IMG/VR virus record: IMGVR_UViG_3300017987_000063
Location: 1 to 64,000 of that record
Reading direction: 5' to 3' (one strand)
Length of the DNA stretch: 64,000 nucleotides
Source: a virus
This document shows, in pieces, positions 6,658 through 60,475 of this stretch. The notes under the pieces are model-generated. The model did no database searches. It worked only from the letters and a program-made list of their open reading frames with translations, and was not told the DNA's origin. Within the stretch, counting starts at the first letter, position 1. Each line of letters begins with the position of its first letter. The position numbers were made by a program, and so were the translations under genes.

Positions 6658-6671
6658 CGCAAGTGATTGCG
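6658..6671. repeat. 14-bp dispersed site CGCAA-TCAC-TTGCG (first of 9 exact copies)
   Basis: Exact copies at 6658(rev), 10709, 17366, 26452, 37857, 44192(rev), 49391, 54299, 60461; 1-mismatch copy at 4623. Confidence 0.9.
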
Positions 6672-6881
6672 TTCATTTATCCGTCTTGTTTAACGCCCAT
6701 TGATATATCTGCCACCACATGCTCCGGTGGATCAGGCACCTCCATCTCCACCTCAATCCCCTCGTGGCATATTGAGGCTTTTGCCTTTGTAAACCTTTTA
6801 AAAGCCTCAAGAGCCACGTCTTTAGGTATCCATGTCCTCCCATAAGGAAACCACGCGCCCTCCTCGCCTTTTTCGTTCCGC

Positions 6882-7202
6882 TCAAACCGTAACACCAATG
6901 CTTTTATTATCATTTTTCCTTCCTTTATATCCACAACCCTGCTCTCGCGGGGCACCATACGGATACAGTGAACAGGTCTTGGGACGCTTATCATAAATCA
7001 GGCACGCGGCCTTTTTCTTGCCGTTTGGCGGCCTGTAATGTTTACAAGTCGCTCGATAGTGCTTGCCTTCAGGATGAACCTCGCCTGTCCACACCATAAT
7101 CTCTAACAGGTCTTGCGCCCCTATTTTTCTGGCCTCTTTTTCGGTAACAGGCAGCCAAATATTCTCGCAGCACTTCCCGCATCTTTTACACGCTCTCGGC
7201 AT
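6882..7202 (-). CDS. YkgJ-like CxxCxxCC cysteine-cluster protein
   Basis: CKRCGKCC ... CLIYDKRPKTCSLYP. Confidence 0.75.
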   Translation of the reverse strand: MPRACKRCGKCCENIWLPVTEKEARKIGAQDLLEIMVWTGEVHPEGKHYRATCKHYRPPNGKKKAACLIYDKRPKTCSLYPYGAPREQGCGYKGRKNDNKSIGVTV

Positions 7203-7383
7203 TTTTACTCCCGTAAGCCCGCACCTGCCTACGCAGTTCGCTTAACAGGCTGTCAATCCCATCCCGGTGCGCCTTGTCCAGTATCGGGTCGTCCAGCGGC
7301 TTTTCCTCCGCAAGCTGTCTGGCCTTCTCCAGCCGCTTAATCTGCTCCTGCGTTATCTTTAGTTGGAGGTCGTTCTCAATCAT
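7186..7383 (-). CDS. Small helical hypothetical protein
   Basis: ORF coupled to its neighbours. Confidence 0.55.
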   Translation of the reverse strand: MIENDLQLKITQEQIKRLEKARQLAEEKPLDDPILDKAHRDGIDSLLSELRRQVRAYGSKNAESV

Positions 7384-7871
7384 AGCCTCACCTTCGTCTT
7401 TATTGGAGTACCTGTATGCCCGCGCAGGCTTCCATACTCAGGCACACCTCCTGTCCTTAATGCCTCCAGCAGCTTCTTGCCTATATTTTCCTGCCCCCTC
7501 CTGTCTACACCCGACAAGCCACCTTTTGTCTCCCGAAAAAACTTAAATTGAGTGGTCTCCAGTAAAAACTTGGTGGCTTTGGTTATCTCTTTAATACTCG
7601 TATTTTCCTCCATCGCCGAAAGCCATTGTAACGTCTCGTGCAGGGAAGCGTTTAAAAAATCGTACCACGTAACCCGTAAAAAGACAGTCTCGACATCCCC
7701 ACTAAATTCCAGCTTGAGCATAATAACAAAGTCATACTCCCCCTCCTCCACTACGTCGAGCCTCTCGTAAAGCATGGCTTTTCTGTCGTTTTTCCAGTTT
7801 GCGCCCGGTTCGGCCACCTTTCCTTTAACCAAGAAGGCCGGATTCACTTTAACCTCCATCGGCCACCTCAA
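7380..7871 (-). CDS. Hypothetical protein
   Basis: Coupled ORF; likely start MEVKVNP. Confidence 0.55.
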   Translation of the reverse strand: MRWPMEVKVNPAFLVKGKVAEPGANWKNDRKAMLYERLDVVEEGEYDFVIMLKLEFSGDVETVFLRVTWYDFLNASLHETLQWLSAMEENTSIKEITKATKFLLETTQFKFFRETKGGLSGVDRRGQENIGKKLLEALRTGGVPEYGSLRGHTGTPIKTKVRL

Positions 7872-8340
7872 GCTCGCCCATAAGCATTTTCAGCAGCACC
7901 TCATCGGTTATCCTGCGCACCTTCAGTTTTTTACGAAGGCAGTAATAATCGGGGCACTGGTAGCGAACATCTATAACTTCCAGCCTTACCTTCAAGCCCC
8001 CGACCTTTTTACCGGCTAAGTCCCACAGGCTATGGGGCATCATGTCAATCACGCGCCCATCGGCATACGGCCCCCTGTCAAATATCACCACCGCCGTACC
8101 TTCGCCGTACCTGTCGCTGCGCCTGTCATCGTTTATCACCCGCACGATGGTGCCGTAAGGCAGCGTCTTGTGCGCCGCGATGGGGTCGTCCGCATGTACC
8201 ATAATCCCCGAACCGCCGAACCGCTTGCCGCTCCAGCCGAATCCGTAGTGGGTAGCTATTCCGGTCATGGAATGAGCCATTATCAGGCCGCAAAATATGA
8301 AGGTAATCAGGTTCATAAGCCCCTCCCGCTTATAGCCCAC
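7849..8340 (-). CDS. RlpA-like double-psi beta-barrel lytic transglycosylase with signal peptide
   Basis: AAHKTLPYGTIVRV, DRGPY, GRVIDM; hydrophobic N-terminus. Confidence 0.85.
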   Translation of the reverse strand: MGYKREGLMNLITFIFCGLIMAHSMTGIATHYGFGWSGKRFGGSGIMVHADDPIAAHKTLPYGTIVRVINDDRRSDRYGEGTAVVIFDRGPYADGRVIDMMPHSLWDLAGKKVGGLKVRLEVIDVRYQCPDYYCLRKKLKVRRITDEVLLKMLMGELEVADGG

Positions 8341-9729: not shown

Positions 9730-9748
9730 ATTTTACCTCCTGACTATT

Positions 9749-9776
9749 ATTATAGCATATAATTTTATAATGTCAA
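9749..9776 (-). promoter_or_regulatory. Strong sigma70-type promoter, repeated family
   Basis: TTGACA-16 bp-TATAAT with TG extension. Related copies at 19953, 21306, 23795, 27580, 34290, 38071, 46202, 48699, 50765, 52527, 53909. Confidence 0.85.
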
Positions 9777-9785
9777 GTCTTTTCT

Positions 9786-10673: not shown

Positions 10674-10774
10674 GTCACATTACTCTTTCACTATAGCGCA
10701 GTGTGACACGCAATCACTTGCGCTTCTTCTTGTTTTTAGGTTTTGGCCCTGTACGGGAAGCATAAGTCTGTCTT

Positions 10775-11702: not shown

Positions 11703-11710
11703 AAAACCCC

Positions 11711-17354: not shown

Positions 17355-17370
17355 GCTCTATTACGCGCAA

Positions 17371-17883
17371 TCACTTGCGTCTTATTGTCGGAGGAGGATC
17401 GTACCCCGCATCCCCGCTATTTTCAAGGCTCTGCTCGCCATCGGAAACTCCATCAGCATCTTCGATCACTTGACAATCCGTTACGCTGCCAGACTCTACT
17501 GCATCTCCCATCATGCCATCCTTGTATTGGCTGCCTTCCGGCAGTGGGTTCTCGTGGCCACCGGGCTCGCCCTTTATGTCCAGATATACCTTCGTTCCCC
17601 ACACCCTCAGCTTCTCATTATACTCACGCCGCTCCTGTTCTGTCTGGTCTATTTTTACGGATGCCGGATGCTGTACCGGCATAGACTCCCCTATGGCGGT
17701 CTCTATCGCGTCCAGTATAATGTTCGCGCAAGCCTCACACCACTGCCGCTTAACTCCCGCATAGGCATGAGGCCGCTCGGCTATAATGTAAAGGCGATAC
17801 CACCCTACCTTCAAGGGTCTATCGCCTTTACTAAACTCCGCACCGCACCGCTGGCATCTTAGGTATTCGGGTTCGTATGGCAT
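17371..17883 (-). CDS. Hypothetical Zn-finger protein
   Basis: CQRC ... CEAC. Confidence 0.55.
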   Translation of the reverse strand: MPYEPEYLRCQRCGAEFSKGDRPLKVGWYRLYIIAERPHAYAGVKRQWCEACANIILDAIETAIGESMPVQHPASVKIDQTEQERREYNEKLRVWGTKVYLDIKGEPGGHENPLPEGSQYKDGMMGDAVESGSVTDCQVIEDADGVSDGEQSLENSGDAGYDPPPTIRRK

Positions 17884-19901: not shown

Positions 19902-19976
19902 TGTCTTATCCTGTCCTCCTTTCAGGGGGCTTATTCGCCCCCTTTGATTATTATTATAGCATATATTCTTATAATG

Positions 19977-25656: not shown

Positions 25657-26755
25657 TGGTCATTACCCCCATCAGTATTTTTTTAATATCGTCAAACTTA
25701 TCTCCGCGCTCTTGCCAATAAATGTTAATGTCCTCAAGCGTTTTATGCTTTGCCTCATCCCCATAAACAGTCCAGCCGCCCTTCCCTTTTATAATAAGCC
25801 CCCACCGCTTGGCCAACTTAGCCACTGGTGCTATCTCCGGCATTTCCCCGATCTTGTAACCCTCATAATCGGCTATCTGTAACTCGAACTGCCCTTCGTG
25901 ATATGGGGTAAAGGTCTTATTTTTCTCAATGACGAAATCCGTAACCGCCCGAATGGGAATCTTACCTTTCGGGGCATAAACAGGAGGTCGCCTCTTGAAT
26001 TTAGCCCGTACCGATGGCAGGAACTTCTGGCCTTCACCTCCCGGCAGGACTTCAGGGTTCCCATACATAACTCCGACCTTGAGCCTTATCTGGTTAATCA
26101 GCACCACGGTCGGCATAATTCCGAACTGGGCTTTTGCGTCCGCTATGGCTACTCCCCACTTTCGGAATAGCCGATTCAGAGCCCGCGCAAGCAGGGCGAC
26201 CAAATCATCCTCTGCCGAAGCCTCAATTTCCTTTGACGTAGTCAAGGCCGCAATGGAGTCCAGAACTATCAAGTCGCAATGCCCGCTCCTTATAGCCTCT
26301 TCGCCCACGTCAATAACCTGTTCGGCATACCTGTCCTGCACCACGAAAAGCCGCTTGTTATCCACGCCATTCCGCTCCGCCCACCGGTAATCATAAACAC
26401 CTTCCGCGTCTATCCACGCCACGGTCATTGGAAACGCACCGCCCTTACACGCGCAATCACTTGCGGGCAACCTGCATGTGCGACACGTTCTGTGCGCCGA
26501 AGCCGCTGTTTTAAGGGCGATCACGGATTTGCCGGAGCTTTCATGCCCGTAAAGCAAAGTAAACCGGCCCATCGGTATTCCACCGCCGAGAGCGGCATCC
26601 AACACAAAAGAGCCGGTTGAAAGGCGGGGAATATCACGATAGGCAGCGGTCATTTTATCCGCCCGAACTGCCGTGTTCTCCCCGTATGTTTTGCACGTTT
26701 TATTGAAAATGTTTTGAAGCCCTGCAAGAGCTTCGTCCAGCTTAGGAGCCGCCAT
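25607..26755 (-). CDS. recA: RecA-family recombinase
   Basis: LDAALGGGIPMGR, GHESSGKS, IDAE, LDSIAAL, INQIRLKVGVMYGNPE. Confidence 0.93.
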   Translation of the reverse strand: MAAPKLDEALAGLQNIFNKTCKTYGENTAVRADKMTAAYRDIPRLSTGSFVLDAALGGGIPMGRFTLLYGHESSGKSVIALKTAASAHRTCRTCRLPASDCACKGGAFPMTVAWIDAEGVYDYRWAERNGVDNKRLFVVQDRYAEQVIDVGEEAIRSGHCDLIVLDSIAALTTSKEIEASAEDDLVALLARALNRLFRKWGVAIADAKAQFGIMPTVVLINQIRLKVGVMYGNPEVLPGGEGQKFLPSVRAKFKRRPPVYAPKGKIPIRAVTDFVIEKNKTFTPYHEGQFELQIADYEGYKIGEMPEIAPVAKLAKRWGLIIKGKGGWTVYGDEAKHKTLEDINIYWQERGDKFDDIKKILMGVMTSGNAGTTEDTEAEGQE

Positions 26756-27083
26756 CGCGCTTCTCCCGAACCTCCTCTATTTCCTTGAGGAGCCGCGCCT
26801 CGACAACCCTGTTACACCACTCCAGCCCCGCCGGAATTTCCTCACAGTAAACAGGCCGAGTCACCGACACGTCCACCCGCGCCGATTCGTAGTTGCCGAG
26901 ATTCACGGTAATGCCCTTTTTAATCCCCACATAAGCAGGTTCCACCGCAAATGTTCCAACGTCAAGGAACTCCTCTTTTTCAGTTTCACCCTCATTTTTA
27001 ATGCTGGTGCTAACCGAAACTGTGGCAGGGCCTCCATCGCCGGGCTTCTTTACTTTTTCCTGTTTTTCTTTCGCCACTTTCAT
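26742..27083 (-). CDS. Conserved-looking phage hypothetical protein
   Basis: TVNLGNYESARVDV. Confidence 0.6.
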   Translation of the reverse strand: MKVAKEKQEKVKKPGDGGPATVSVSTSIKNEGETEKEEFLDVGTFAVEPAYVGIKKGITVNLGNYESARVDVSVTRPVYCEEIPAGLEWCNRVVEARLLKEIEEVREKRDGGS

Positions 27084-27559
27084 CCTCCTCGTATGCCGTT
27101 TGGCATTTTATCAAATTCAGCTTTTACAAGCTGCGGGAACGCCGAACTTTTCCATTGGACGTTCCCCTGTTGAGTAAGCGAGACCTTGCGAGCGGTAAGA
27201 ATAACGTCCACTTGGTCTTCCGTCCACAGCCGGTTCTCGCCATCATCCCGGTAAGTCGCCTCCGGTATGATGCCGCGAGCCAGCCACACACGCAGTGTCC
27301 CTATTTTAATGCCAAGCATTTTCGCAAGGGTTCCATTGCTGTAAACCTTGACCTGCCGACCATTTATGGAAATATACTTTATCGGCATCGGGCCTCCAGC
27401 GCGTCCCCCGCTTGTTGCCGTTTTCGGCTTGGTACGCTCTCGCCACTTGCGTCCCGCCTCAAGCATGCGCTCTCGGTAAGCCTTATCTTCCCGATAACGC
27501 CTGCGCCGCTCGGAATTAAGCCGCTCTTTATTCTCATCGTACCACTTTTTCCATCCCAC
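27080..27559 (-). CDS. MerR-like HTH DNA-binding protein
   Basis: TLAKMLGIKIGTLRVWLARGIIP...RLWTEDQV. Confidence 0.75.
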   Translation of the reverse strand: MGWKKWYDENKERLNSERRRRYREDKAYRERMLEAGRKWRERTKPKTATSGGRAGGPMPIKYISINGRQVKVYSNGTLAKMLGIKIGTLRVWLARGIIPEATYRDDGENRLWTEDQVDVILTARKVSLTQQGNVQWKSSAFPQLVKAEFDKMPNGIRGG

Positions 27560-27604: not shown

Positions 27605-30193
27605 TCAAGTCCCTTGCCCTGTTTTTTGCAATTTGGCATAAATAAGTTTCCTGTTAAGCTGCCAGTCTTCGCAAACCGGAAGTTCGGTATCCAGTATATC
27701 GGTAACCACAGGCTCCTTTTTCTCCGCATAATCCCTCAGAATCCTTCCCACTGGTTGCTCCACGTCCACCGCCGGAGTCGCCATGAGCAGGGTATCCAGC
27801 CTCGGAATATCCAGCCCTTCTTTCGCCATCTGGTATGTCGCCAGCACAATGTGCGCCTCATTCTCGCTAAACTCCATCATGGTCGCGCTTTCCCCGCCGA
27901 TGTATCGCCCGACCTTGAGCCAGTCATGCGCCGCCAGCATTTGCTCCAGAATTCCGACCTGCTCGCGCCGCTCCGTCAACACCAGCACGCTCCGGCCTGC
28001 CTTTGCCGCGTTTACAAGCTCTCCGGCGATCATGCGGTTCCTGCTTTCGCGCTTGGCTATGTCGGTAATCAAAGCAGACCTGCGCTTCTTGTTATACTCC
28101 CACAGGCCGGTATTTTTATTCTTGGAGCCATACTTTCGCAGGGTATAAGGGCCGTTAAACCGGATATAACGAATCTTCGGAGCCAGATACCGGACACCAG
28201 ACTCGGCGAGAATCGGCCCAATGTGGGCATAAAGCAGGGGCATCATTCCATCCTTCCGGCGAGGGGTAGCCGTAACCCCCACCCTGTACGTTGAAGGAAA
28301 CATGGTTATCACCTTCTGCCACTCCGCCGCGCCGTACCGGTGACAATTATGGGCAACTACGCCATTCCCTACAAAGTTATGATTCCCCTCAACTGTCAAA
28401 TCATAAACGTCCCTGCATCCTGCAGGGGTAATGGATTGAATCTGTTTTATACCGCATTTCGGGGATGATAAAAAGGGCGATTTTTCCGATGAAAATGGCG
28501 GACATTCCGGTTCGCATGCTAATATTCCAATGCCTTCCCGTCCAGCGGACTTCGGAAATAATGCCTTTTTCCTCCAGCCACGCCCTAATAAGCTGATTTT
28601 CTTGTTTTGAATACCCCTCAGTATGTAAAGTAACTTGCCCATTTTGAGCGGAGCCATCGTCCATAAACCACCAAGCCATTCCTTCATCTGATATATTATT
28701 GAGCCATTGTTCAGTAACCCGCTTTTTCCCTGTTTTTCTGCAAATTTCCCAAATTTCTTCCAGAACTGGTTGCGTTGCAGATACCGCCCGTATAAGCGGC
28801 CCTCCCCACCCCCCATTTTCCACCTGTTTAACTTTGAAAGCAAGGCATGATAATTTCTTTGCCTTATAAAATACCCAAGCCGCCTGTCGGATACTGTGCT
28901 GAAACAGTAATCGAGGCCCCCGCGCTGTCCTGTGGGGTCTATTAATACACCCATCTCCCAACAAGGTACCGAGAATAAGCCCTTTAATGCCCTTAATATC
29001 TTTGCACTCAATGACACCTCGCCGGTTATGCCCCAATTTATATTCAGGCCAGTCAATCTTTTTACACCGCTTCTTTTTATAATATTCCCAATCCAATTCA
29101 ATACGCTCGCCGCACCCGCATTTACAATATGGGGCAGTTGCTTTCCATATTTCAATCCTTTCCACCCAGTCAACCCTTCTCCGTAAATCTCTCGTGTGTC
29201 CCTGTAACCGCCTTCGCTCCCTACCCCGCGCATCAAATTTGAACAGTGTTTTTCCACATCCGCAGGCGCACTCAATAAGAACATTTTCGGCTTTAGCTCT
29301 CGCGCCTCTCGCCATCCATCTACTGTCAACACTCGATGCTCCGGCGTACATATCACGCTCGTCCCGTCCGTAAACTGGATTTTCAGGGTCTGCCGCTTTC
29401 CTCTCGGTAACCATGCCAATATTCTCCTATACTCAAAGGTAGATCGTGTTTCATTGAATGATAGCACTAAAGAGGCTTTTTCGCAACTAGCTATTGGCAT
29501 ACTCCCTTGTTCGGTTATAACCCTCGTATCCCCTGCCACGCACTCGTCAAAGATAACAGTCCCGAACTCCCTGAATAACTGCTCCGGATAGGCTTCCCTC
29601 CCCCGCTCGACCAGCGATTGAATCATGGCCACCGCGACCTTAACATCGCTTCCCCACTCGCACCTGTCCTGCTGGATAAGCCCTATTTCCTCCCGCGCAA
29701 GCCCGCAAAAGCTCTGAAAAGTTTCAACCCACTGGTTGTATAAAAATTCTTTATGCACCAGAACGACCGGTTTCCTGCCAAGTTTCGCCGCAATATCCGC
29801 TCCCACTACTGTTTTACCGAAGCCCGGCGGAGCGCAAAGGATGCCTCCATGACACCCGCTGCCTATTCCTTCATGAAGCTCCCGCAGGAAACTGTCCCGC
29901 ACCTTGACCTGCGCCCCCCTGTGCTTCCACGCGCTTGCCTTTAGCTCGTCAAAGGTAAATCCAGCCGCCGCCCCAATAACCGTCTTATCCTGCACCCTAT
30001 CCTTCGTGGTGTTCGCCAGTAAATCATATCCGAACACGCGGGGCAGACACAAATAGCCGTTCTCCTCCTGCCATCCGTAGACCTCGGTTTGCTCTTGGGT
30101 CATGTAATCGGTAATGGTGAACGTAAGACGGGGTTTGATTATGCTTTCGATAAACCAGCCTTTCGGTCGCCGCAAGCGCAGCCATTCGGCCAT
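27605..30193 (-). CDS. Superfamily 2 DExH helicase with intein (start uncertain)
   Basis: APPGFGKT, FDE|CH, TATP, KEGLDIPRLD, QPVGRILR. Confidence 0.9.
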   Translation of the reverse strand: MAEWLRLRRPKGWFIESIIKPRLTFTITDYMTQEQTEVYGWQEENGYLCLPRVFGYDLLANTTKDRVQDKTVIGAAAGFTFDELKASAWKHRGAQVKVRDSFLRELHEGIGSGCHGGILCAPPGFGKTVVGADIAAKLGRKPVVLVHKEFLYNQWVETFQSFCGLAREEIGLIQQDRCEWGSDVKVAVAMIQSLVERGREAYPEQLFREFGTVIFDECVAGDTRVITEQGSMPIASCEKASLVLSFNETRSTFEYRRILAWLPRGKRQTLKIQFTDGTSVICTPEHRVLTVDGWREARELKPKMFLLSAPADVEKHCSNLMRGVGSEGGYRDTREIYGEGLTGWKGLKYGKQLPHIVNAGAASVLNWIGNIIKRSGVKRLTGLNINWGITGEVSLSAKILRALKGLFSVPCWEMGVLIDPTGQRGGLDYCFSTVSDRRLGYFIRQRNYHALLSKLNRWKMGGGEGRLYGRYLQRNQFWKKFGKFAEKQGKSGLLNNGSIIYQMKEWLGGLWTMAPLKMGKLLYILRGIQNKKISLLGRGWRKKALFPKSAGREGIGILACEPECPPFSSEKSPFLSSPKCGIKQIQSITPAGCRDVYDLTVEGNHNFVGNGVVAHNCHRYGAAEWQKVITMFPSTYRVGVTATPRRKDGMMPLLYAHIGPILAESGVRYLAPKIRYIRFNGPYTLRKYGSKNKNTGLWEYNKKRRSALITDIAKRESRNRMIAGELVNAAKAGRSVLVLTERREQVGILEQMLAAHDWLKVGRYIGGESATMMEFSENEAHIVLATYQMAKEGLDIPRLDTLLMATPAVDVEQPVGRILRDYAEKKEPVVTDILDTELPVCEDWQLNRKLIYAKLQKTGQGT
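28346..29542 (-). mobile_element. Intein (399 aa) in helicase motif II
   Basis: CVAGDTRV, CTPEH, VYDLTVEGNHNF...VAHN followed by Cys. Confidence 0.9.
28401..29315 (-). CDS. LAGLIDADG homing endonuclease in an alternative frame inside the intein
   Basis: GLILGTLLGDG, MAWWFMDDG, IPEMRYK; two N-terminal CxCGCG motifs; start MARG inferred. Confidence 0.85.
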   Translation of the reverse strand: MARGARAKAENVLIECACGCGKTLFKFDARGRERRRLQGHTRDLRRRVDWVERIEIWKATAPYCKCGCGERIELDWEYYKKKRCKKIDWPEYKLGHNRRGVIECKDIKGIKGLILGTLLGDGCINRPHRTARGPRLLFQHSIRQAAWVFYKAKKLSCLAFKVKQVENGGWGGPLIRAVSATQPVLEEIWEICRKTGKKRVTEQWLNNISDEGMAWWFMDDGSAQNGQVTLHTEGYSKQENQLIRAWLEEKGIISEVRWTGRHWNISMRTGMSAIFIGKIALFIIPEMRYKTDSIHYPCRMQGRL

Positions 30194-30270
30194 CTTGTTA
30201 TCAGTCGCTCCTTCCAGCCCGCGCCGCGCAAGCTCTGCATCGCGCCCGACCAGTCCCCCGTAGCCTTTTC

Positions 30271-33450: not shown

Positions 33451-34113
33451 TCAGTAATCCACTTGTCCGGAATCGCCTGCCCCGGCATCGCCACTGCCTT
33501 TACCCTCTTTATCCCAAGGGTCTCCCTCGCCGACTCCGAGAGCCGCCATATCGCGCTCGACCTCAAACGCTTCCAGCGGCTTGAACATTTTCATAAAATC
33601 GAAGGGCTCCACATCCTTGAGCGTCGCTATATCGAATTTACCTTCGAAATCGAAGCTGCCGCCCACGCGAGCGGTCTTTTCGTCCGCCCTGTAAGCCTCA
33701 TACTTGAGCCCCTTCAGACTGCCCCGCTTTTCCTGCTGGTCTCGCAACCACTTGAGCGTCCTGCTCTTGGCCGCGAATATCCGCTTGGAACCGGTGGCAT
33801 GCTCGACCCCGTTTTTATCGGTATAAGGAGTCAAATCCTGAATGGTAATCATGCCGACATAATAGGGCTTGTTCCCTATTTTGCACAGCGGGCAACCCTG
33901 CCGAAGACAGGTAAAATAATTGCCCCAAGAGCCATTCGCGTAAAGATGATGCTCGTAGAAGCAGAGCGGTTCAGACTCAAGAAAAACTATCATCCTTTTT
34001 TCGCCTTCCTTGAGCCAGAAGCGAGGCTGGAATTTACCCTTTTCCTTATCCATCGCCTCATCCAAGCCGTTGTAACCGGTATCAAACCAGTCTTTTCCCT
34101 TGCCATTTCCCAT
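33451..34113 (-). CDS. Single-stranded DNA-binding protein (gp32-like, Zn-binding)
   Basis: EHH...C-x4-CPLC, acidic C-terminus ending VDY, next to the polymerase. Confidence 0.65.
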   Translation of the reverse strand: MGNGKGKDWFDTGYNGLDEAMDKEKGKFQPRFWLKEGEKRMIVFLESEPLCFYEHHLYANGSWGNYFTCLRQGCPLCKIGNKPYYVGMITIQDLTPYTDKNGVEHATGSKRIFAAKSRTLKWLRDQQEKRGSLKGLKYEAYRADEKTARVGGSFDFEGKFDIATLKDVEPFDFMKMFKPLEAFEVERDMAALGVGEGDPWDKEGKGSGDAGAGDSGQVDY

Positions 34114-37691: not shown

Positions 37692-38086
37692 CTTTGATTT
37701 ATTTTACCGGGCGGCATGGTTACCTATTTCAGAAGGCTTTCACTCCAATCAATGTTACTTCATCCCGTATCACCGGGGTAGCCTCGCATTGAAATTCAGT
37801 GAATCGGGCCGCGACCATACCTTGTTTATTCCTGTAGGAACCCGGTTTATACTCTGCGCAATCACTTGCGCTTTACAGTTCGGTCTCCACCAGCCCCTCA
37901 AGGCTCTTTAACACCGCCTCAATGGGGAGGTTAAGGCAGGCGAAGTCTTCGCCGCGCCGTAAGTTCACCGGCATCCGAGGCCCCTCATAGCTGAAGGTGC
38001 CGTCCATCTCAAGTTCCATATAGCTTATTGTCCACTCCATTTTCCTGTCCTCCTTTATCCTTTTACTATTATTATAGCATATATAT

Positions 38087-40538: not shown

Positions 40539-43109
40539 TCAATAATCAAGGGGCTCTTCCTCGCCGATTTCAATATCGTCCGGCACCCCTTTTACAAGGC
40601 TGTCCCCCTCCCTGCCGACCAGCCCTGTCTCGGTAAAGTCATTATCCATAAAATTCCAGTTTAACAGGAACTCCACAAGCTCGTCCTCCCTGTTTTTAAG
40701 CAGCCGAACCAGCATAGTCTTATCCGTCAAGTGGTCTTGATTGCGGAACAGGGCGAGGATAACATCCGCGTTCTGTGGCAGCCTGTCGCTCAACCCGACG
40801 TTCTCCATCCCCGCCCGCAGGCTTTTAAGGTTGACCTGCTTATTGAACTGGGCAGTAATCGCCACCGGAACATGCTGCCTGTGCGCCATCAGGGTAATAT
40901 CATCCGCGATATTCGTAACCCGCTCCCACATTGAAGTGGCCTTTTTCCAATCCATAAACAGGTAAACACCATCCACGAACACAATATCCGGCTTCGTAGC
41001 ATTCACCACCCGCTCCACGTCCGGCACCGTGCTTACATCCTCTGCACCGATCATGTGTAGTCCGCCCTTACCGGCCAGTAAATCCAGCGCATCCCATAAT
41101 TTTTTCTCGTCAAAGGCTCCGAGCGTTCCCTTCCTTAGCCTGTGGTGTGGGACACCCGCTAAAATGGCATAAAACCGGCGAATCATGGCTATCTTGCTCA
41201 TTTCCATCGTCACAATCAGCACTTTTTTACCCATCTGCCATGCCGCCCACGCCAGAAACAGCAGGAAAAAGGTGTTGTGGGCGACCAGACCATTGGCGAC
41301 AAAATTATGAGTTTCCAACACCGTAAAATCGAACACTCTTCTTTCACCCACATTCTGTACCTTTTCCACCCGATCCCATATTATGTCAGGACTGCTCAAC
41401 CATTCAAATTCGTGGAGTAGCCCCTTATTAGCTCTTATCAAGCCTTGAAACATTCTCCGGCTAACCCTTCCCGAATTGTGCTTATTCAAAAACTCGCGAG
41501 CCCCCCACCGCCGGGGGTTTGTTAGCCCCAAGCACTTTGCGGCCTTTGTAAATAGCCCCTCTCTGTCCGCTGGCCGAACCCCCTTATGTTTGCGGTTTAC
41601 TTTAGCTATTGTAATGATTCTTTCCCTTATCTCTTTGCTTACTGGAACAGCATCAATATTTGGATTGCAACTGGGATTTAGTTTCGCCAACGCCGTACTT
41701 TTCGGGCCGGGAATGTCGGTAAATACAGTTTTAAATGCCTCCCGCGACGTACTGTCAACGATAAACTCCCATGACTTGAATTTCCGGCCATTACAGCGGC
41801 TTATTTTCACTCGTTTCCTGCCGCTGATCCCGAAACGCATTAACAGCTTTTGAATATCGTCAATCATTCCCTCCGATCCCAGTCCAATGCCTATGCAGCC
41901 GCGCTTATCGATATAACCATCTCCAGCCCATAACACCTCAATAAAGCGGATCAAAGTTTTATATGGAAGCCGGAACACCCCTACCGGCACTCTTTTTTCG
42001 GTCGCCTTCTCGTGCCCCAGTCCATATTTTTTCAATAATTTCGCCCTGATATTCCCTTTAATACCATAGTCATATTTGCCATGCTTCCGCTTATGTATCT
42101 CACATCCGATTGCGGATGCCGCCTTTTTCACAACGCTTAAAAAAGCGGCACATCCGCTTGTAATGGTGACACTGCTCCCTGTATAACCGCCTTCGGATAA
42201 TAGGGCCGCTAATAATTCAACCTCGCCAATAGGCTGATTCACCGGCATCTCTGGCTCCGGCACCATCTTGGCTGCCGCTATATAATCTTCCTGCTGCAAC
42301 TCCGATGCCTTGGCCCAGCCTCGCTGTGTCAAAAAGGGATGCTCCGGCGTTACTGTAATGCGCCGACCAGAACGTGTTTCAACCTCGACACACGCCTTAA
42401 TTCCGGTATCCAGATGGGCGAATGGTTTAACAGATTTAAACCGCCCTCCTGCTTTTTCAAAAGTTAGCAGCTTACGTTGCTCGTGAACAGCGTCCTTCGC
42501 GCTCGGCCACTCCCCCGTTAAAGGGTCATAGATAGGTGTATCTTCGGCAACGCATTTCCCCGTACCCGGTCGGGCAACTATCAGGATGGTTTCCCCCTCA
42601 TGCCAGCCGTAAGTAGCCTCGTTTAAAGTCCCCCACGGAGTAATGATGCCGTCCGGCCCGCCGATTTTCTTGATAAGCTCGTACCTGTCCCGCTGGAGTT
42701 TTACCGTAGATTTTGCCATAACGTCCAGCACGATCTCCGAAGTCGCCCCGATCCTCGCCGCCGCCGTCCCGGTATCCGTCAGCCCGCGCCGTGCCGCCGC
42801 GAAGTCCCCCCTGCGGATTGCTGCCTCAACGCTTCCAATACCCTCCAGCATAACGCTTCGGGTCTCGCGCTCCAGCATTTTATCAACGTAGTACTCCAGA
42901 GGCTCAAGAGCTTCCTCAACCTCAAACGAGTAATCCGTCTTTAGCGCGGTCTCCGTGGGCATGGTGCCGTATTTCTTCCGGTGTTCAAGGATGTGTTCAA
43001 GAGTTCTTCGATGGTCTTTGAAGAAGTCCGGCGATACCCCGCGCTCACTCAGGAGTTCAAGCCGGGGATCGGCCAGCAGTCTCGTTATTATCTGCCGTTC
43101 AAGCCCCAT
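40539..43109 (-). CDS. dnaB: DnaB-like replicative helicase with intein
   Basis: ARPGTGK|T, TMEM, FVDG, AQFN, LKNRE. Confidence 0.9.
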   Translation of the reverse strand: MGLERQIITRLLADPRLELLSERGVSPDFFKDHRRTLEHILEHRKKYGTMPTETALKTDYSFEVEEALEPLEYYVDKMLERETRSVMLEGIGSVEAAIRRGDFAAARRGLTDTGTAAARIGATSEIVLDVMAKSTVKLQRDRYELIKKIGGPDGIITPWGTLNEATYGWHEGETILIVARPGTGKCVAEDTPIYDPLTGEWPSAKDAVHEQRKLLTFEKAGGRFKSVKPFAHLDTGIKACVEVETRSGRRITVTPEHPFLTQRGWAKASELQQEDYIAAAKMVPEPEMPVNQPIGEVELLAALLSEGGYTGSSVTITSGCAAFLSVVKKAASAIGCEIHKRKHGKYDYGIKGNIRAKLLKKYGLGHEKATEKRVPVGVFRLPYKTLIRFIEVLWAGDGYIDKRGCIGIGLGSEGMIDDIQKLLMRFGISGRKRVKISRCNGRKFKSWEFIVDSTSREAFKTVFTDIPGPKSTALAKLNPSCNPNIDAVPVSKEIRERIITIAKVNRKHKGVRPADREGLFTKAAKCLGLTNPRRWGAREFLNKHNSGRVSRRMFQGLIRANKGLLHEFEWLSSPDIIWDRVEKVQNVGERRVFDFTVLETHNFVANGLVAHNTFFLLFLAWAAWQMGKKVLIVTMEMSKIAMIRRFYAILAGVPHHRLRKGTLGAFDEKKLWDALDLLAGKGGLHMIGAEDVSTVPDVERVVNATKPDIVFVDGVYLFMDWKKATSMWERVTNIADDITLMAHRQHVPVAITAQFNKQVNLKSLRAGMENVGLSDRLPQNADVILALFRNQDHLTDKTMLVRLLKNREDELVEFLLNWNFMDNDFTETGLVGREGDSLVKGVPDDIEIGEEEPLDY
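41274..42554 (-). mobile_element. Intein (427 aa) with LAGLIDADG endonuclease at the P-loop
   Basis: CVAEDTPI, VTPEHPF, LLAALLSEG, LWAGDG, VAHN followed by Thr. Confidence 0.92.
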
Positions 43110-43725
43110 TCTCCGCTCCTATCGTAGCCGTTTTGCGCCACTGAACGCCTTTAAGCTCCAGCATTACCGCGCTTTCCATTAAAAGCGCCATGAAAGACTG
43201 GCTGTAACCCGCTTTTAAAAGGCCGGAAGGCGCGACATTCGTGGTTATCAAGGTAATCTGTAGGTTCTGCGCCCGCGCCCTTATAATTTCCTCAACTGTG
43301 GCCTCTGTAAAGCCGGACGCGGCCTTGTATTCCTTGCCGAGGTCGTCTATTACCAGAACGTCCACATCTAAAGCCCTGTCGTACCACGTGCCGCCCTCAT
43401 CAAACTCCCGCTTGGCGATAATCATATCCCGAAGCTCCCCCGCCCTGACAAATAAAGCCGTGTAGCCCCTGCGCCGGTACTCTTTGGCGATGGCTATAGC
43501 CGCCGAGGTCTTTCCGGTTCCATTATCCCCCCACAGCACAATTCCTAATCCATCCCCATAATTATCGCGCTCAAGATACTCGATCAAGGTCTTCTTGTGT
43601 GTGGCTGTATCGGGAATTTGGGAAATGGAAACACCGTAGAACCTGCGGCCTACATGCATCCGCTCATAATCAGCTTGCTGGAGCTTCCGCCTTTTCATCC
43701 TGTCCTGCTCCTCGTTCCCATCCAA
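43099..43725 (-). CDS. DnaC/IstB-like helicase loader ATPase
   Basis: GDNGTGKT, LVIDDLGKE, ITTN. Confidence 0.85.
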   Translation of the reverse strand: MDGNEEQDRMKRRKLQQADYERMHVGRRFYGVSISQIPDTATHKKTLIEYLERDNYGDGLGIVLWGDNGTGKTSAAIAIAKEYRRRGYTALFVRAGELRDMIIAKREFDEGGTWYDRALDVDVLVIDDLGKEYKAASGFTEATVEEIIRARAQNLQITLITTNVAPSGLLKAGYSQSFMALLMESAVMLELKGVQWRKTATIGAENGA

Positions 43726-44689
43726 GTATCTTCATAAGGTCTTCCACTGTCTCTCCAGCCGTGGCGGGGTCATATTCCCGCGCCGCTCGTGGGTCACGCT
43801 TTTCCGGTATATCCCCCTTCTCCCTGTAGTATTTTATAGTCTCCCGGAAGCCAAGTATAATCCCAGGAGTAGGGTATAAGGCGCTCACGCCGATGGCTTT
43901 ATACAGTTTATGCCAGCACTCAAAGGTAAAAGTTATCAATAAAACCGCCTCAACCGGCCCCATAATGTCGTAAAACTTATTCAACTGCCCTGCCTCCTTG
44001 CCGGTAAGACCGCCGCTAACATCCGCAGTTAACTCTCTCTGCTTGGCATACAAGGCCCGAATATCCGCCTTTGTGTAGTCATGAATCTCTTTTATTACTG
44101 GTTCTCTAGGAGACTTAACCCTCTTTGCCTTTTTACCCTGTCTTTTAACTCTTGCCGCCGTTGCCCTATTTTTACCCCGCTGGAGAGCTTGCGCAAGTGA
44201 TTGCGCCTTCCCATCGGCGTGCGCCCGTAAGGGCGTCTCGCTATGTTCTTCATCTTTGTTTGTTTTTATTAAAGATTTATCTTTAATATCTTGTATTATT
44301 ATGTCACGCACCTGCGATGGAACGTATTCCTTATCCTGCGATGGAATACGTTCCATTATCTCTGATGGAATAAAGGCGGGTAATTTATGGTCTATAAGCC
44401 CCGTTTCCTGTGTTAATCCCAGCCCTCTTCTGGTGGTTGAAATTATACCCATTTCCCTGAGTTTGCGGTATGCTCTATCAATAGTAGGCACAGATAACCC
44501 TAACCTATCTGCCAGAGTTTTATGGCCAACAATGCACTTGGATTTTTTGCCATAGCAATAGGTCGTAAGAGCTACATAGACTTGGCAGGTAGTAGGGTCA
44601 AGCGAAAAAATAACGTCTGGATGGACTTTTGCAAATCGCTTTAGTGTTCGCTCGTTATCTTTTTTTGCATCCTTTTTTTGCTTTTTCAT
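43670..44689 (-). CDS. Replication initiator with N-terminal HTH
   Basis: TLADRLGLSVPTIDRAYRKLREMGII; upstream of loader and helicase. Confidence 0.7.
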   Translation of the reverse strand: MKKQKKDAKKDNERTLKRFAKVHPDVIFSLDPTTCQVYVALTTYCYGKKSKCIVGHKTLADRLGLSVPTIDRAYRKLREMGIISTTRRGLGLTQETGLIDHKLPAFIPSEIMERIPSQDKEYVPSQVRDIIIQDIKDKSLIKTNKDEEHSETPLRAHADGKAQSLAQALQRGKNRATAARVKRQGKKAKRVKSPREPVIKEIHDYTKADIRALYAKQRELTADVSGGLTGKEAGQLNKFYDIMGPVEAVLLITFTFECWHKLYKAIGVSALYPTPGIILGFRETIKYYREKGDIPEKRDPRAAREYDPATAGETVEDLMKILGWERGAGQDEKAEAPAS

Positions 44690-47600: not shown

Positions 47601-50383
47601 CCGGTATCTGCTCTCGCGCAGCCACTTCGTTATTTTTTATTCCACGTTGAAGCAATTTCCTCAAGCTGTCCCTCAACGCTCTGGATTGTAGCCCATTTGC
47701 CTTTGGGGAACCACGCATCTGCATCGGGCAGGGCTTTCATAAGCTGAAGAATCCATGACATTCTTTCAGGCTGCTCCTCCACCGCAAAAGGCTCCCCGAA
47801 TGCAAGCTCCAGCCCTTTTGCGGCCTTCTCCGATAATGTTACTGTGGTCTTCATACTGCATCCTCTCAATAAGGCGGAACATCCGTCAAGTCCGCCCGCT
47901 TCTCCACGTTCGGCTTCCGGTAAGGCTTGTAAACGGCCTCGTTGTCAGATACAGGGAACCGCAGGTCATAATACCGCCCCTCAATCGGGGCATCCTCGCA
48001 CATCTCCACATCGTGGTCGGTAAAGCGGATAATTACCGCCTGGCGCCGGGCTTGGTCTCTTGTCCGCATATTTCACATTTATTCATGTTTAGCTCCTGTC
48101 CTGTAAAAAAGTCAGGCGAGGGTGGGAGGACAGGCCACACCCCCGCCCTCAATTATGCGGTCATATCAGCCGCGATTCTCGCAAGCTGTCCCGCATACTT
48201 CTTAATCTTTTTCCGTATAAGCTCGCCCTGCTTCGGGGTAACAAACCCCTTGTCCATATACCACTGGGCGATGCTGGTAAGCACCGGCGCGTCGTGGCCG
48301 GTAAAGCCGACACCATTATTGTGGCGCGTGTCGCCCGCTGCCTGCTCGTCTGCGGTCTGCCGGTGGTACAAGGCCACCAGAGCATTTGCGAGCCTTTTGT
48401 GCGGGGCTGTGGCTATCCAGCCAGCCATTTTTGCCTTCTGTGCCTTCTGTTCTTTAGTCATTGTCCTGTCCTCCATGCCCATCGTCAAGGGCTTGCGCGG
48501 CCTGTTCAAGCTCGCGCTTTGCGGTTTCAACGTAACTCCATTCGCCTTCGGTCAAGGCATCGTTTAAATGGTCTAATGCCTCGTTGACCTTGTTGGCTAT
48601 AAAATCGTAATCGCGTTTCATTATATGGTCTCCCGTGGTGCTTCGGGGAGTCCGAAGGTATCGCTGTTCACCCCCGGCCTGATGTCCACATGATTATTAT
48701 TATAGCATATATATTTAAAACGTCAATACCTCTGGCCGGTTTATTTCGCCTTTTTCGGCTTTTTCTTCAGGCCAATCTCGATTATTGTCTGAATAATGAT
48801 GGCCACCACCACCGGCCATATCAGGGTCAAGGCCATAATCATGCGTGGCCTGTCCGGTTCATCTTCCGGCAGATAAATTGCCAGTAAAAAACCGGTAATA
48901 ATAGCCCCCCACAGGTATATGGTCATGGCCATCATTTTTCCACCTCGATTCTGATTTTGCGGATAGTAAAACCTTCGCTTTGTAATAGCTTCCAGTGATT
49001 TTTGCCCGGCCCTTGCCATCCGCTAAACTCCTTATTGGTTTCTTCAATTGCGTCTTTTCTTTTTTGCCGAATTGAGGCTATAATTATTCTGCCTTTGGGA
49101 GTAAATCCCGCCCATACGATGATTGGTTTCATTTTTTCGGCCCTTCCAGCTTGATAAGCCCCGCCTCGGTAGCCCTTCGGTAAAGCTCACCGGTATCGCA
49201 CCATGCCTCCTGCGCCTTTACCTCGTCGGGGAAGACTGTCCTCAGCCGCTCCTTGTTAATCCTGTCCGCTGCGCCGATGGCGTTAAACAGGTGGGTCGAA
49301 AAGCTCCCCGCCTTGTTTTTCTGGTAATCCAGATAAAGCATCTCGGCTTCGGTAAACTTGATTCCTTTGATTTCCGGCATTTTATCCTCCCGCAATCACT
49401 TGCGCTTTGGTAACTCGGCCTCAATACCCTTTTCGGCCTGTTCTTCAAAGCCCTTGATAAGCTCGTCCATGCTGCCATCCGGAAGCTCGAATTCGTCCCC
49501 GAATATCTTGTCCAAGCCCATCTTTTTCATGGTCTTAAAGGTCTCGGCCAGTTCCGCACCCTGTGCCTTGACCGCCTCATTAAACTGCTCCTTCGTTATA
49601 TTCAGGTCTATCTTTTCCATCTCCTTTTTCTCCCTTCTGTTCATCTCCCGCTTTATTGCCCTGCCATTCGGACAGATGCAGGGCCTCTGGTCGGTATAGA
49701 CGCGCCCTGTCCGCGCATTAACCACCTTCAGGTCAACCATGCCGGAGTTATCGCATAGCCCGCATTTATTGAATTTCGGTAAAAAGCTATCATCCATTTC
49801 CACCATAAACTCCCACCATAATGCTTTTGCCATGTCAACCTCCTAACTGTAGTCAACCTCAATGGGCTCCCCGCGCAGGGTAAACTCACCGCGCTCCAGC
49901 GTAGCCGCACCGGATATTACACCGATGGCCACCGCGTCCCAGTCGCCCATAAAGGCTCCAGCCGCCGACACGCCTCCATGCGTATCGTCAAACTCCCCGC
50001 TCTGGCCATAGGTTTCAATCATCCTGTCCGTGCAGTGTAGTGCCCTGCCTTCGGGGAAGATTATCTTGTTATGGTAATGGCCTATCTCCCGCTCCTCTAC
50101 GATGCAGTCGCGCCGGGAGATAACCCGCGTCCGTACCCATTTGCGTCCTTCTTCCATGTTATGCCGCCATCCCTTCCGCCCGCGCCAAGTCCTTCCGTAT
50201 GGCTTCCGCGATAGCCAATTCAGCGGCAGCCGCCTCAGCGTAACCGCGCAGCCAGCACATGGCCATGTCAAAATCTCTGCCTTTGAAGGGATTATCGGTT
50301 ATAAAGTATTCGCGGTCGAAGGCTTCCTTACCCTCAAAGTAAGCCGCCCTGCCTTCCTCGGTAATAATAGCGGTATTTTCCAT
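44686..50383 (-). other. Cluster of roughly 15-20 small hypothetical early-type genes
   Basis: Short coupled minus-strand ORFs with repeated promoters and leaders. Confidence 0.6.
47471..47534 (-). ncRNA. Small tRNA-like three-stem element
   Basis: Closing stem GGGGCTTG/CAAGCCCC enclosing ACCGG/CCGGT and CAGGG-TGAGATT-CCCTG hairpins. Confidence 0.4.
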
Positions 50384-54130: not shown

Positions 54131-54667
54131 CTAGAATTTAAGTATATCAAATCCGATGGCGAAATGCAAGCCCCGTTCGATAGGCTCATCCGGTGTCCAG
54201 CCGCAGCCCATCGTAAGGGTTAAAATCTCCGGTATAAGCTCCGTGCCTGTACCGATGATAATAACAGTCGCCCCCGCGCTCAACTCCACAAAGTCAGGCG
54301 CAATCACTTGCGCCCATTTTATCCATGTCCTGTTCGCGGGATTCTGGATTTGGGGAAAAAGGCGATACCGCGCTCCAATTGTAGGGGTAATAAGCGAATC
54401 TTCCCCAATAACCACTACGAAACCTCCTGTAATCTGTGGAAAGTACGTTGCCAGTTTCGCGCCGGGGTCATCGGTTATCAGGTTGCCTTCGTCGTCGTAA
54501 CGGAGCGGCGGTGCGCCTGCTTCCTCCGCGATAACCTCCGCCTCACTGTCATCCTGTCCAAACGCGCCATAAGGCAGTAAGAAAAGAATTGAGGTCATTA
54601 GGGTCAGGAGGATGCTTAATCTTTTCCCATGCCCGAAGGTACTGGACAAGTCGGTAAACTTTCGCAA
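54131..54667 (-). CDS. Exported/membrane hypothetical protein
   Basis: Signal-peptide-like segment, C-terminal Phe. Confidence 0.55.
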   Translation of the reverse strand: MRKFTDLSSTFGHGKRLSILLTLMTSILFLLPYGAFGQDDSEAEVIAEEAGAPPLRYDDEGNLITDDPGAKLATYFPQITGGFVVVIGEDSLITPTIGARYRLFPQIQNPANRTWIKWAQVIAPDFVELSAGATVIIIGTGTELIPEILTLTMGCGWTPDEPIERGLHFAIGFDILKF

Positions 54668-56947: not shown

Positions 56948-56959
56948 AAAACCTCCTTT

Positions 56960-58976: not shown

Positions 58977-58988
58977 ATCTGCCTCCTG

Positions 58989-60257
58989 TTAATCGTTCAT
59001 CCATATAAGGACGCGCAGCCCAAAGGCTTCCACCACACCCGCATTAAGGCGGGCAATAGCATCCCTATGGGATTCGTCATCCTGTACTGCTGAAACCCCC
59101 GACACCACCTCGCTTGGCCCTGCGGAATAGGTTAAATTTCCATAGCGGGCATCGTGATCCGCCACCGCTGCCGATGGAGGGGTAATTGTATCCGGCATAT
59201 TGGATAGCTTATCGTGCGGGATGGTCAACTCAACCGCATCAGGATTAAGCGTACCATCGGGCATGATAACTCCATCCGTCACCGGTAAGCCGGTATAAGG
59301 GTCATACGTCCGATAAATCCGCTCCTCCAGCGAGGACATAAGCCCACGAGCGATCTCAATTTCAGGGCTGGAGCCAAACCACGGGTCTCGCAGGTCGGTT
59401 ACCATAGCCGCCGAAATGTTGGGGTCGCCATCATCCCTATCAATCTGCGCGAGCGGCACTATGTAATGGAGGTTGCCCTGCGTGTCCACATAATCGGCGG
59501 GAATAGAGCCATCTTCAATAACCCTCACCCACTGAATGACCTTTAACCGCCGAGCAGACTCTATACCGGTTCCCACAGGATGAAGCAGGTCGGGGTCTTC
59601 CGTGGCATTCCACTCCATAACGTGAACGTCCAAGTAGGCATAATCTGTCCTATCGCTGCCCACCGGGGTCGTAAGCCCTATCCTGTAGTAATCGCCCACC
59701 GCCGCGACTGTGGTATGGTCTCCTGCTGTGGTAATGCTGGTCGCCGTGTTGGAGATAATCGTAAACCCTGTTGCGCTGTCCACATTCGGGTAAAGTGTCC
59801 GGCCCACAAGCTCGTTGACCTGCCACTTGCCGTTAATATCCGTCAAGGTAAGCGCATCGAGGCCAGTAGACTTGTGGAAAATCTCGTCCTTGAACTGCGC
59901 TGCTACCGGCGGGGTCGGAGCAAACTCCCTGTCGGCGGTAAGGATAACATGCAGACCATCCGCCCAACCATGAGCATAAGTTTCAGGGTCACCGACCGAT
60001 GCCGCCAGCCCATCTATGTTAAAATTATTGGGCAGCCCCGCGCCTATTATCTGGAAGGATGTGCTGAAAAACTTTCGGCCTGTAGCCCTCTGAAGAGCAC
60101 GTTGAAGCTGATGGAATAGCGTCTCAGCGGCATCGTTGGCATCGCGGTCAATGGCCTCCTTGCCTTGCTGCTGGAGCTTGCCTAGATACCGCTTTCGCTC
60201 GTCGAAAATGTTACCGCTGTAATAACCATTCCTGTCCGCGCCGTGTTGGTTGCTCAT
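58989..60257 (-). CDS. Baseplate/tail-fibre-associated structural protein
   Basis: FDERKRY...QQGKEAID.D.N N-terminal motif; position after wedge genes. Confidence 0.65.
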   Translation of the reverse strand: MSNQHGADRNGYYSGNIFDERKRYLGKLQQQGKEAIDRDANDAAETLFHQLQRALQRATGRKFFSTSFQIIGAGLPNNFNIDGLAASVGDPETYAHGWADGLHVILTADREFAPTPPVAAQFKDEIFHKSTGLDALTLTDINGKWQVNELVGRTLYPNVDSATGFTIISNTATSITTAGDHTTVAAVGDYYRIGLTTPVGSDRTDYAYLDVHVMEWNATEDPDLLHPVGTGIESARRLKVIQWVRVIEDGSIPADYVDTQGNLHYIVPLAQIDRDDGDPNISAAMVTDLRDPWFGSSPEIEIARGLMSSLEERIYRTYDPYTGLPVTDGVIMPDGTLNPDAVELTIPHDKLSNMPDTITPPSAAVADHDARYGNLTYSAGPSEVVSGVSAVQDDESHRDAIARLNAGVVEAFGLRVLIWMND

Positions 60258-60269
60258 TGAAACCTCCTA

Positions 60270-60446
60270 TTATCCGCGTCTGCCTTTTCCTCCACCGCGT
60301 CCACCGCCTCTTCCTCCGCCGGGGCCTCCACGGGAGCATCCGCCGGTATTACGACCACCCCTTCTGCCGCCAACCATACCAACGCCCCTGCCTCTGCCAT
60401 CTCTTGGTCTTGCCTGTCCTCTCGGATTCCTTGTTGCAGTAGCCAT
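60270..60446 (-). CDS. 58-aa RGG-rich peptide (not in ORF track)
   Basis: MATATRNPRGQARPRDGRGRGVGMVGGRRGGRNTGGCSRGGPGGGRGGGRGGGKGRRG; AAGGAG RBS; stop adjacent to next gene's RBS. Confidence 0.7.
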   Translation of the reverse strand: MATATRNPRGQARPRDGRGRGVGMVGGRRGGRNTGGCSRGGPGGGRGGGRGGGKGRRG

Positions 60447-60475
60447 TTTTTAACTCCTTCCGCAATCACTTGCGT

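Follow-up and report, generated by a model that had tools for sequence, protein, structure and literature searches.

Dispersed palindromes in known systems

The IncP plasmid RK2 carries 12 OB operators, i.e. copies of a palindrome of 13–16 bp lying about every 5 kb over the whole mobile genome, at which the ParB-family protein KorB loads and from which it slides (PMC11790492, PMC13768133). On the Bacillus subtilis chromosome, around 70 Noc-binding sites (NBS) likewise represent a dispersed palindrome, of 14 bp, and their reader, Noc, has the ParB fold and acts without a ParA. Here, we describe a similar array in a phage, namely a 14-bp site, CGCAATCACTTGCG, repeated along IMG/VR record IMGVR_UViG_3300017987_000063 (hereafter G000; 90,971 b, 63 % complete according to CheckV), of which the first 64 kb form the window analysed. 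On balance, we lean towards regarding this site as the phage's own version of a clade-wide array of docking sites on double-stranded DNA, with a symmetric, phage-encoded reader that would most likely be the ParB-like protein P0121.

By analogy, KorB–OB, Noc–NBS and ParB–parS are the closest known systems, although membership in any of them is not established. G000 resembles RK2 in the size and genome-wide spread of its palindrome, and the predicted fold of P0121 matches KorB (8qa9). KorB, however, has ParA (IncC) and KorA partners and a proven helix-turn-helix (HTH) motif, whereas no ParA was found in the G000 contig. Moreover, the phage sites are significantly evenly spaced and, in relatives, are often forced into genes, and the element that carries them is a large, uncultured and apparently virulent-type myovirus. 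Compared with Noc and ParB–parS, the half-site sequences are unrelated, and the sites lie on a phage genome instead of a bacterial chromosome.

No description of these palindrome arrays was found in the searchable literature. Neither publications dealing with DLP3/DLP5 and with Rhodobacter phages nor a survey of ParB folds make mention of these palindromes, and searching the literature for the site sequences themselves yielded nothing but primers and PurR/MalR boxes.

Number, sequence and spacing of the sites in G000

The 14-mer occurs nine times in the window and in none of 100 dinucleotide-preserving shuffles of it. In the whole 91-kb contig there are 11 exact copies (nine forward and two reverse; control 0), with those at 65542 and 80861 located outside the window; the contig is incomplete, and all counts are for the assembled 90,971 b. 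The nine copies found in the window by the sequence-only reading, a first inspection made without database searches, were recovered at the same positions and on the same strands (two reversed, at 6658 and 44192, and seven forward), as was its variant at 4623, which has the core TCGC. A mismatch-tolerant search of the window adds only this variant and a two-mismatch match at 33743, which has one arm broken and is probably due to chance.

In its general form, CGCAA-N4-TTGCG, the site is present 14 times in the contig against 0.08 expected (around 170-fold), and no other palindrome with 5-bp arms is enriched in G000. The enrichment over shuffles, controls and expectation rules out a chance origin. 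While 11 of the 14 cores are TCAC/GTGA, the remaining three are TCGC, GCTC and CTGA. The arms, not the core, define the site class, so that of the palindromic arms and invariant asymmetric core first proposed, only the arms stand. The flanks are not conserved except for a G at −1 (~80 %) and a C at +1 (~57 %), which turns the site into a 16-bp quasi-palindrome, often extended to GCGCAA-N4-TTGCGC. A longer repeat or the footprint of a mobile element can be ruled out, since the flanks are otherwise unrelated between copies. As an inverted repeat of 13–16 bp present in several copies, the 14 sites have the form of ParB/KorB/Noc-type arrays.

The sites are also more evenly distributed than random points, with a coefficient of variation (CV) of the gaps of 0.38 for the 14 general copies (P=0.0002) and of 0.48 for the 11 exact copies (P=0.009), the smallest gap between the latter being 4.05 kb (P=0.0015). 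In G000, a site is found about every 6 kb.

Placement relative to genes

By manual reading of the whole contig, seven of the 11 exact copies lie at gene junctions (Table 1), and the automated analysis, which gives a lower bound, places at least six of 11 there, against 13.5 % of non-coding DNA (P=0.003). Six of the seven junction copies start 0–5 nt past the upstream stop, and the next ATG is 10–38 nt away. The four exact copies inside genes are found in the RecA gene, the gene of an O-like replication initiator, the open reading frame (ORF) 54131–54667 and a 58-aa ORF at 65542, which may not be a real gene. The reading frames first given for three of these (ASDC in RecA, AQSLA and AQVIA) are correct, and so is the position of one copy just upstream of the MGRGG gene (35 nt from the gene start at 10673).

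Viewed alone, this placement looks like that of a stoperator or of an RNA hairpin with a GNRA loop. The stoperators of Cluster A mycobacteriophages (L5 gp71) are 13-bp sites present in many copies, often at stop codons and in one orientation to transcription; they are asymmetric, belong to temperate phages and are bound by the immunity repressor. As for an asymmetric site of one orientation in short intergenic spaces, the likeness holds loosely for G000 taken by itself. Yet the arms of the phage site are palindromic, no repressor was identified, and the perfect palindromes of the relatives lie mostly in genes, the last of which speaks against a stoperator. Of the original proposal of a genome-wide protein-binding DNA site, we therefore favour the general idea, with parS as the closest analogy, and not its stoperator-like version.

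A hairpin acting as RNA or single strand at gene junctions, where it could signal processing or stability, act in boxB-like antitermination or form a stoperator-like block, would suit several features of G000. Read on the transcribed strand, nine of the 11 exact copies are CGCAAGTGATTGCG, which as CGCAA-GUGA-UUGCG would give a 5-bp stem with a GNRA loop. The same nine account for the orientation bias, all three exact GTGA copies in the small phage G001 (see below) have that orientation too, and most junction copies begin at or just past a stop codon. However, of the two G000 copies in reverse orientation, one is itself at a junction, and no U-tract follows the stem. Changes in the arms are never compensated, i.e. 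there is no covariation of the kind that a structured hairpin leaves; among the relatives, loops are either arbitrary or palindromic, and copies lie for the most part in genes; and one syntenic copy has its core flipped. We consider such a hairpin quite improbable.

Two further readings were rejected. A sigma70 promoter does not fit, as G000 has near-consensus promoters of its own elsewhere and several sites are just 10–14 nt from the next ATG, and an intrinsic terminator does not fit, as the stem is of 5–6 bp and lacks a T-run (U-tract) on the sense strand.

Site arrays in other phages

Close relatives of G000 were detected neither by megablast against the phage collection nor in a scan of metagenomes. 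A RecA identical to that of G000 is carried by six contigs, the next RecA homologue shows 40 % identity, and the closest viral contig as judged by the baseplate protein 51 %. In distant relatives, the array takes the form YGCAA-N4-TTGCR. Cultured phages were analysed by a de novo count of palindromes, and scans of IMG/VR with the 14-mer (matches listed) and, completely, with the 16-mer brought up two groups, one of small phages of 62 % GC and one of large phages of 56 % GC.

Between 9 and 33 copies of YGCAA-N4-TTGCR, with a preferred 4-bp core specific to the lineage, are present in two uncultured phages and in cultured phages of Stenotrophomonas, Rhodobacter, Rhizobium, Agrobacterium and Vibrio (Table 1). 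Five viral control records hold 0, 0, 2, 2 and 5 copies (ParB_N was searched in one of them only, G006, and none was found). The uncultured G015 (identical to G013) and G016 are large phages of 56 % GC with 9 and 10 copies of CGCAA-N4-TTGCG and 20 and 16 copies of YGCAA-N4-TTGCR, respectively, which have mixed cores and lie mostly in genes. Most copies in the other relatives are within genes as well, with the reservation that gene calls are rough in GC-rich genomes. Spacing in the relatives is around 3 kb, and it is also even in Summit (P<5e-5), JP1 (P=1.5e-4), V-YDF132 (P=1.6e-4) and G016 (P=7.5e-4). The cores are themselves palindromic in JP1 (ACGT), RcKickapoo (TCGA) and the Vibrio phages (TTAA), as would suit a symmetric dimer bound to duplex DNA. 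Conservation in relatives, which the sequence-only reading had made a condition of its proposal, is thus seen for the site class, while its emphasis on core and orientation applies to G000 but not to the class, in which the relatives differ. G000 seems peculiar in having a strict TCAC core, a 9:2 bias of orientation and a preference for junctions.

G015 and G016 share with G000, at 25–40 % identity, RecA, a helicase, a methylase, DnaB, a primase, an exonuclease, a RuvC-like and a MerR-like protein, and their ParB-like protein is 34 % identical to that of G000 (E=1e-49). Across the array-bearing clade relatives and G000, the common set at 25–40 % identity comprises RecA, helicase, primase, DnaB, PolA, capsid and portal proteins. 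Since this replication and structural core is common to all of them, G000 and the array-bearing, ParB-positive relatives form one distant clade.

Syntenic sites are kept between G015 and G016, even though their flanks have diverged or can no longer be aligned. At one syntenic in-gene site (G015:47201 versus G016:1234), the arms are kept and the core is inverted (TCGG versus CCGA), as if the centre had been flipped in place. A second such comparison is offered by three small phages of 62 % GC with CGCAA-N4-TTGCG sites, i.e. G001 (IMGVR_UViG_3300011337_000257), G002 (L034) and G017 (L273). G001, with seven general copies in 22.6 kb, is 79 % identical to G002, and two in-gene copies are exactly preserved between them while the flanks diverged. 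The retention of syntenic sites amid diverging flanks in both pairs argues for selection on the DNA.

Taken together, the perfect palindromes, the in-gene placement, the invariant arms without compensatory change and the flipped core point to a symmetric protein acting on duplex DNA, and argue against an RNA hairpin, promoter, terminator or stoperator. Most likely, the sites serve for the docking of a phage protein whose action extends to the whole chromosome. The even spacing, maintained even inside coding sequence, suggests that each site serves a limited neighbourhood, as would be expected for the loading sites of a spreading or sliding protein.

A phage or a host reader

The reader is probably encoded by the phages, because the arms stay the same over a host range from Vibrio to Rhizobium while the core is specific to the phage, even for two phages of the same Rhodobacter strain (TCGA versus TCAA/TTAA). 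The alternative is a conserved host factor, such as a LacI/PurR-type regulator or a nucleoid protein, that the phages have recruited. It draws on the arms, which are identical to those of the PurR box ACGCAA-ACGT-TTGCGT, the JP1 site containing GCAAACGTTTGC, and on the small phages: G001, G002 and G017 have no detectable protein in common with G000 or any array-bearing phage, yet the same type of site is present, with the cores GTGA and TCGG that G000 and G015/G016 favour. These small phages could owe their sites to sharing a host, to borrowing a reader or to mimicry. Besides the variation of cores on a single host strain, several points speak against a host regulator. LacI-family sites carry a central CG, which is absent in most lineages here, the central step being CA, TA, AT or CG depending on the lineage; none of nine phage genomes encodes a LacI-type HTH; and, among the matches listed, the 14-mer has only scattered single occurrences in bacterial genomes. 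Overall, we judge a host reader to be improbable. A host genome-wide repeat (DNA uptake sequence, repetitive extragenic palindrome or Chi-like) was also rejected, as the matches listed in bacterial genomes and viral contigs are scattered singles, except for G001 and G002.

P0121 as candidate reader

P0121 (Table 1) has the nucleotide-binding N-terminal domain of the ParB family, including the GxxRxxA motif (GEHRWKA). Among PDB entries, Noc and ParB match it best in sequence, with Noc being the top match in both sequence and fold. In the AlphaFold2 model (predicted local distance difference test score, pLDDT, 84), six helices follow the N-terminal domain, and Foldseek aligns this domain and the helical domain after it with Noc, KorB (8qa9) and ParB over 190–230 alignment columns, at template modelling (TM) scores of 0.34–0.43. 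Matches to the NCBIfam models of Noc and ParB are far below the cut-offs. A ParA partner, searched for as AAA_31 or CbiA, was not found in the 91-kb contig (63 % of the genome), which sets the locus apart from a ParABS system.

Full-length homologues of P0121 were found by tblastn in phages of Stenotrophomonas, Rhodobacter, Rhizobium, Agrobacterium, Vibrio and Arthrobacter, and every array-bearing clade member has the ParB-like protein. P0121 would be the most likely candidate reader, since no other clade-wide protein has a known precedent of binding to specific sites. A co-occurrence of the sites with the ParB locus, suggested at the outset as a check, is seen in 11 of 13 phages bearing the ParB-like protein, with the restriction that all 11 belong to the one clade and that two Arthrobacter phages lack the sites.

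Several observations weigh against this assignment. In the two Arthrobacter phages, KellEzio and DanielleIgnace, a full-length homologue (~31–33 % identity, the helical region also being similar) is present and an array is not, and an occurrence of the ParB-like protein without sites favours another reader. The link between protein and sites may reflect common ancestry only, the array-bearing ParB-positive phages being one clade. Conversely, G001, G002 and G017 have sites and show no ParB_N within the assembled 38–77 % of each genome. In P0121 itself, no HTH is called by Pfam, and the family consensus shows no evident canonical box III of ParB (ENxxR). Nor does a symmetric reader account for the 9:2 bias in orientation of the G000 copies and for their preference for junctions. 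In addition, a 2026 paper describes phage ParB homologues without an obvious DNA-binding domain that activate T-dioxygenases (PMC13229309). An alignment of 13 homologues revealed no clear discriminating positions at which residues of the ParB-like protein would covary with the site.

The activation of DNA dioxygenases by phage ParB homologues (PMC13229309) also raises the question of whether the sites serve to mark or steer sequence-specific modification, nicking or packaging of the DNA, be it as targets of the neighbouring ParB-DUF4417 or glycosyltransferase genes or as extra terminase recognition sites. In those systems, a ParA-less ParB homologue stands by glycosyltransferase and terminase genes, as here: the cultured relatives other than the Arthrobacter phages have a module of glycosyltransferase, ParB-like protein, coiled-coil protein of ~200 aa and terL. 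Furthermore, a palindrome copy lies 67–187 nt inside the 5′ end of terL in four lineages, i.e. JP1, V-YDF132, RcKickapoo and G001 (rough post hoc P ~0.003). For those systems, no DNA site array is reported (PMC13229309). No Tet/JBP dioxygenase was matched in six genomes here, a weak point since the control search likewise found none anywhere and is uninformative. The proteins adjoining the ParB-like gene show no enzymatic signature, and many evenly spaced pac sites would fragment the genome. A role of this kind seems very improbable to us.

Other phage proteins as readers

Docking of a different phage protein is unlikely, if less so than the host, hairpin and modification readings; the sites would then serve as global operators or as multiple origins or primosome-loading sites. 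The candidates are a MerR-like HTH regulator, the O-like winged-helix initiator (both in Table 1) and a small DNA-binding protein that escaped recognition. The MerR-like gene is kept between the helicase and RecA genes in G000, G015, G016 and Summit, and the initiator gene holds the reversed copy 44192 next to an AT-rich stretch. This copy is just upstream of a DnaC-like loader (43099–43725), and the G015 copy at 54139 has the same relative place upstream of the DnaC-like loader of G015. Site 44192 and its surroundings are a candidate origin of replication within the initiator gene, as is the case in lambda. Neither protein, however, was detected in the array-bearing RcKickapoo and RHph_TM16, and the initiator was not detected in the cultured relatives; the MerR-like protein was rejected as a clade-wide reader because searches of RcKickapoo and RHph_TM16 did not find it. 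Dozens of evenly spaced origins would also be unprecedented.

The only other clade-wide non-enzyme is a 220-aa protein (33451–34113, minus strand), rejected as a reader for its resemblance to a single-stranded DNA-binding protein (SSB). It belongs to phrog_17226, a family of more than 1,400 representatives, has no Pfam match, contains a conserved Cys cluster and ends in an acidic D..PF tip at the C-terminus; the phage SSB is its probable identity.

Further features of G000

The gene content of G000 includes baseplate J, a family A polymerase, DnaB, a primase, a RecA/UvsX recombinase, CobT and several inteins. Nearly all long ORFs are on the minus strand and the GC skew is strongly negative all along. 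Eight near-consensus sigma70 promoters (TTGACA-N16/17-TGcTATAAT) share long AT-rich flanks and are probably early promoters used by the host RNA polymerase. Another motif, GGAGGACAGG, often lengthened to AAGGAGGACAGGACAATGA, has 12 copies between positions 19910 and 53863 of the window, at the starts of minus-strand genes; one copy, at 48125, has the opposite orientation. Four large genes contain inteins with HNH or LAGLIDADG domains.

Table 1. Sites and other features of G000, and palindrome arrays and terL-internal copies in other phages
Genome	Feature	Position	Strand	Remarks
G000	Variant CGCAA-TCGC-TTGCG	4623–4636	+	Within minus-strand gene, read AQAIA
G000	Exact site, reversed	6658–6671	−	Intergenic; 5 nt past stop, 37 nt ahead of ATG at 6620
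G000	Exact site	10709–10722	+	Intergenic; 35 nt ahead of MGRGG gene, which starts at 10673
G000	Exact site	17366–17379	+	TGA (sense strand) is stop of gene 17371–17883; next ATG 11 nt on
G000	Exact site	26452–26465	+	Within RecA/UvsX gene, read ASDC
G000	Exact site	37857–37870	+	2 nt past stop of 55-aa gene, which has consensus sigma70 promoter ahead
G000	Exact site, reversed	44192–44205	−	Within O-like replication initiator gene, beside AT-rich stretch; read AQSLA
G000	Exact site	49391–49404	+	TGA is stop of gene 49396–49833; adjoins GGAGGA ribosome-binding site of next gene
G000	Exact site	54299–54312	+	Within ORF 54131–54667, read AQVIA
G000	Exact site	60461–60474	+	1 nt past stop of 509-aa tail gene, 14 nt ahead of next ATG
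G000	ParB/Noc/KorB-like protein P0121	12984–13733	−	Pfam ParB_N 7.8e-13; phrog_26387 1e-51
G000	MerR-like HTH regulator, alternative candidate reader	27080–27559	−	Pfam MerR_1 9e-7; phrog_19880; in G015, G016 and Summit only
G000	O-like winged-helix replication initiator, alternative candidate reader	43670–44689	−	Contains site 44192
G000	Near-consensus sigma70 promoters	9749, 19953, 36189, 38071, 46202, 48699, 50765, 52527	−	
G000	Intein-bearing gene	3–2690		ORF at contig end, no identity assigned
G000	Intein-bearing gene	27605–30400		Helicase
G000	Intein-bearing gene	30271–33177		PolA
G000	Intein-bearing gene	40539–43109		DnaB
RcKickapoo	Array, 27 copies			TGCAA-TCGA-TTGCA
Summit	Array, 32 copies			Core TCAA
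RHph_TM16	Array, 18 copies			Core CATA
JP1	Array, 33 copies			TGCAA-ACGT/ACAT-TTGCA
V-YDF132	Array, 25 copies			TGCAATTAATTGCA
PG28	Array, 11 copies			Mostly TGCAATTAATTGCA
RcZahn	Array, 9 copies			Cores TCAA and TTAA
KarBoss	Array, ~10 copies			Imperfect form TGCAGTTAATTGCA
JP1	terL-internal copy	5140		
V-YDF132	terL-internal copy	63635		
RcKickapoo	terL-internal copy	13680		
G001	terL-internal copy	13466		

A possible mechanism and its meaning

From these data, we infer that a protein binds the sites, that the ParB-like protein would be the binder and that it may spread from them. The half-site would be (G/T)(C/T)GCAA, two of which, inverted around a 4-bp core, would be recognized by a symmetric, phage-encoded reader, and selection would maintain an even spread of sites (around 6 kb apart in G000 and 3 kb in the relatives). 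The protein, with P0121 as the candidate loader acting without a ParA partner, would load at a site and spread or slide until the whole chromosome is covered. Its purpose might be to organize or condense the DNA for packaging, to shield it from host nucleases or silencers, to control transcription globally or to maintain a plasmid-prophage. It is tempting to speculate, although we hold this fuller version to be rather doubtful, that a ParA-less ParB/KorB-like clamp with a nucleotide switch coats the whole viral chromosome from an even lattice of palindromes so as to organize, shield or package it, that it is conserved in phages of Proteobacteria of 80–150 kb, and that phages of the G001 type borrow the clamp or compete for it.

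If the docking-site array is real, a broad and partly cultured group of phages, including the Delepquintavirus phages of Stenotrophomonas as well as phages of Rhodobacter, Rhizobium, Agrobacterium and Vibrio, would mark the whole chromosome with a regular lattice for protein docking. KorB on plasmid RK2 and Noc in Bacillus are known examples of such lattices, and we found none described for phage genomes. The sites would also provide a concrete DNA substrate for the many orphan phage ParB-fold proteins, the function of which is open (PMC12704722, PMC13229309), and the cultured phages with 25–33 perfect copies would make this directly testable. Finally, the range-limited action implied by an even spacing inside genes could serve to predict such systems from sequence alone.

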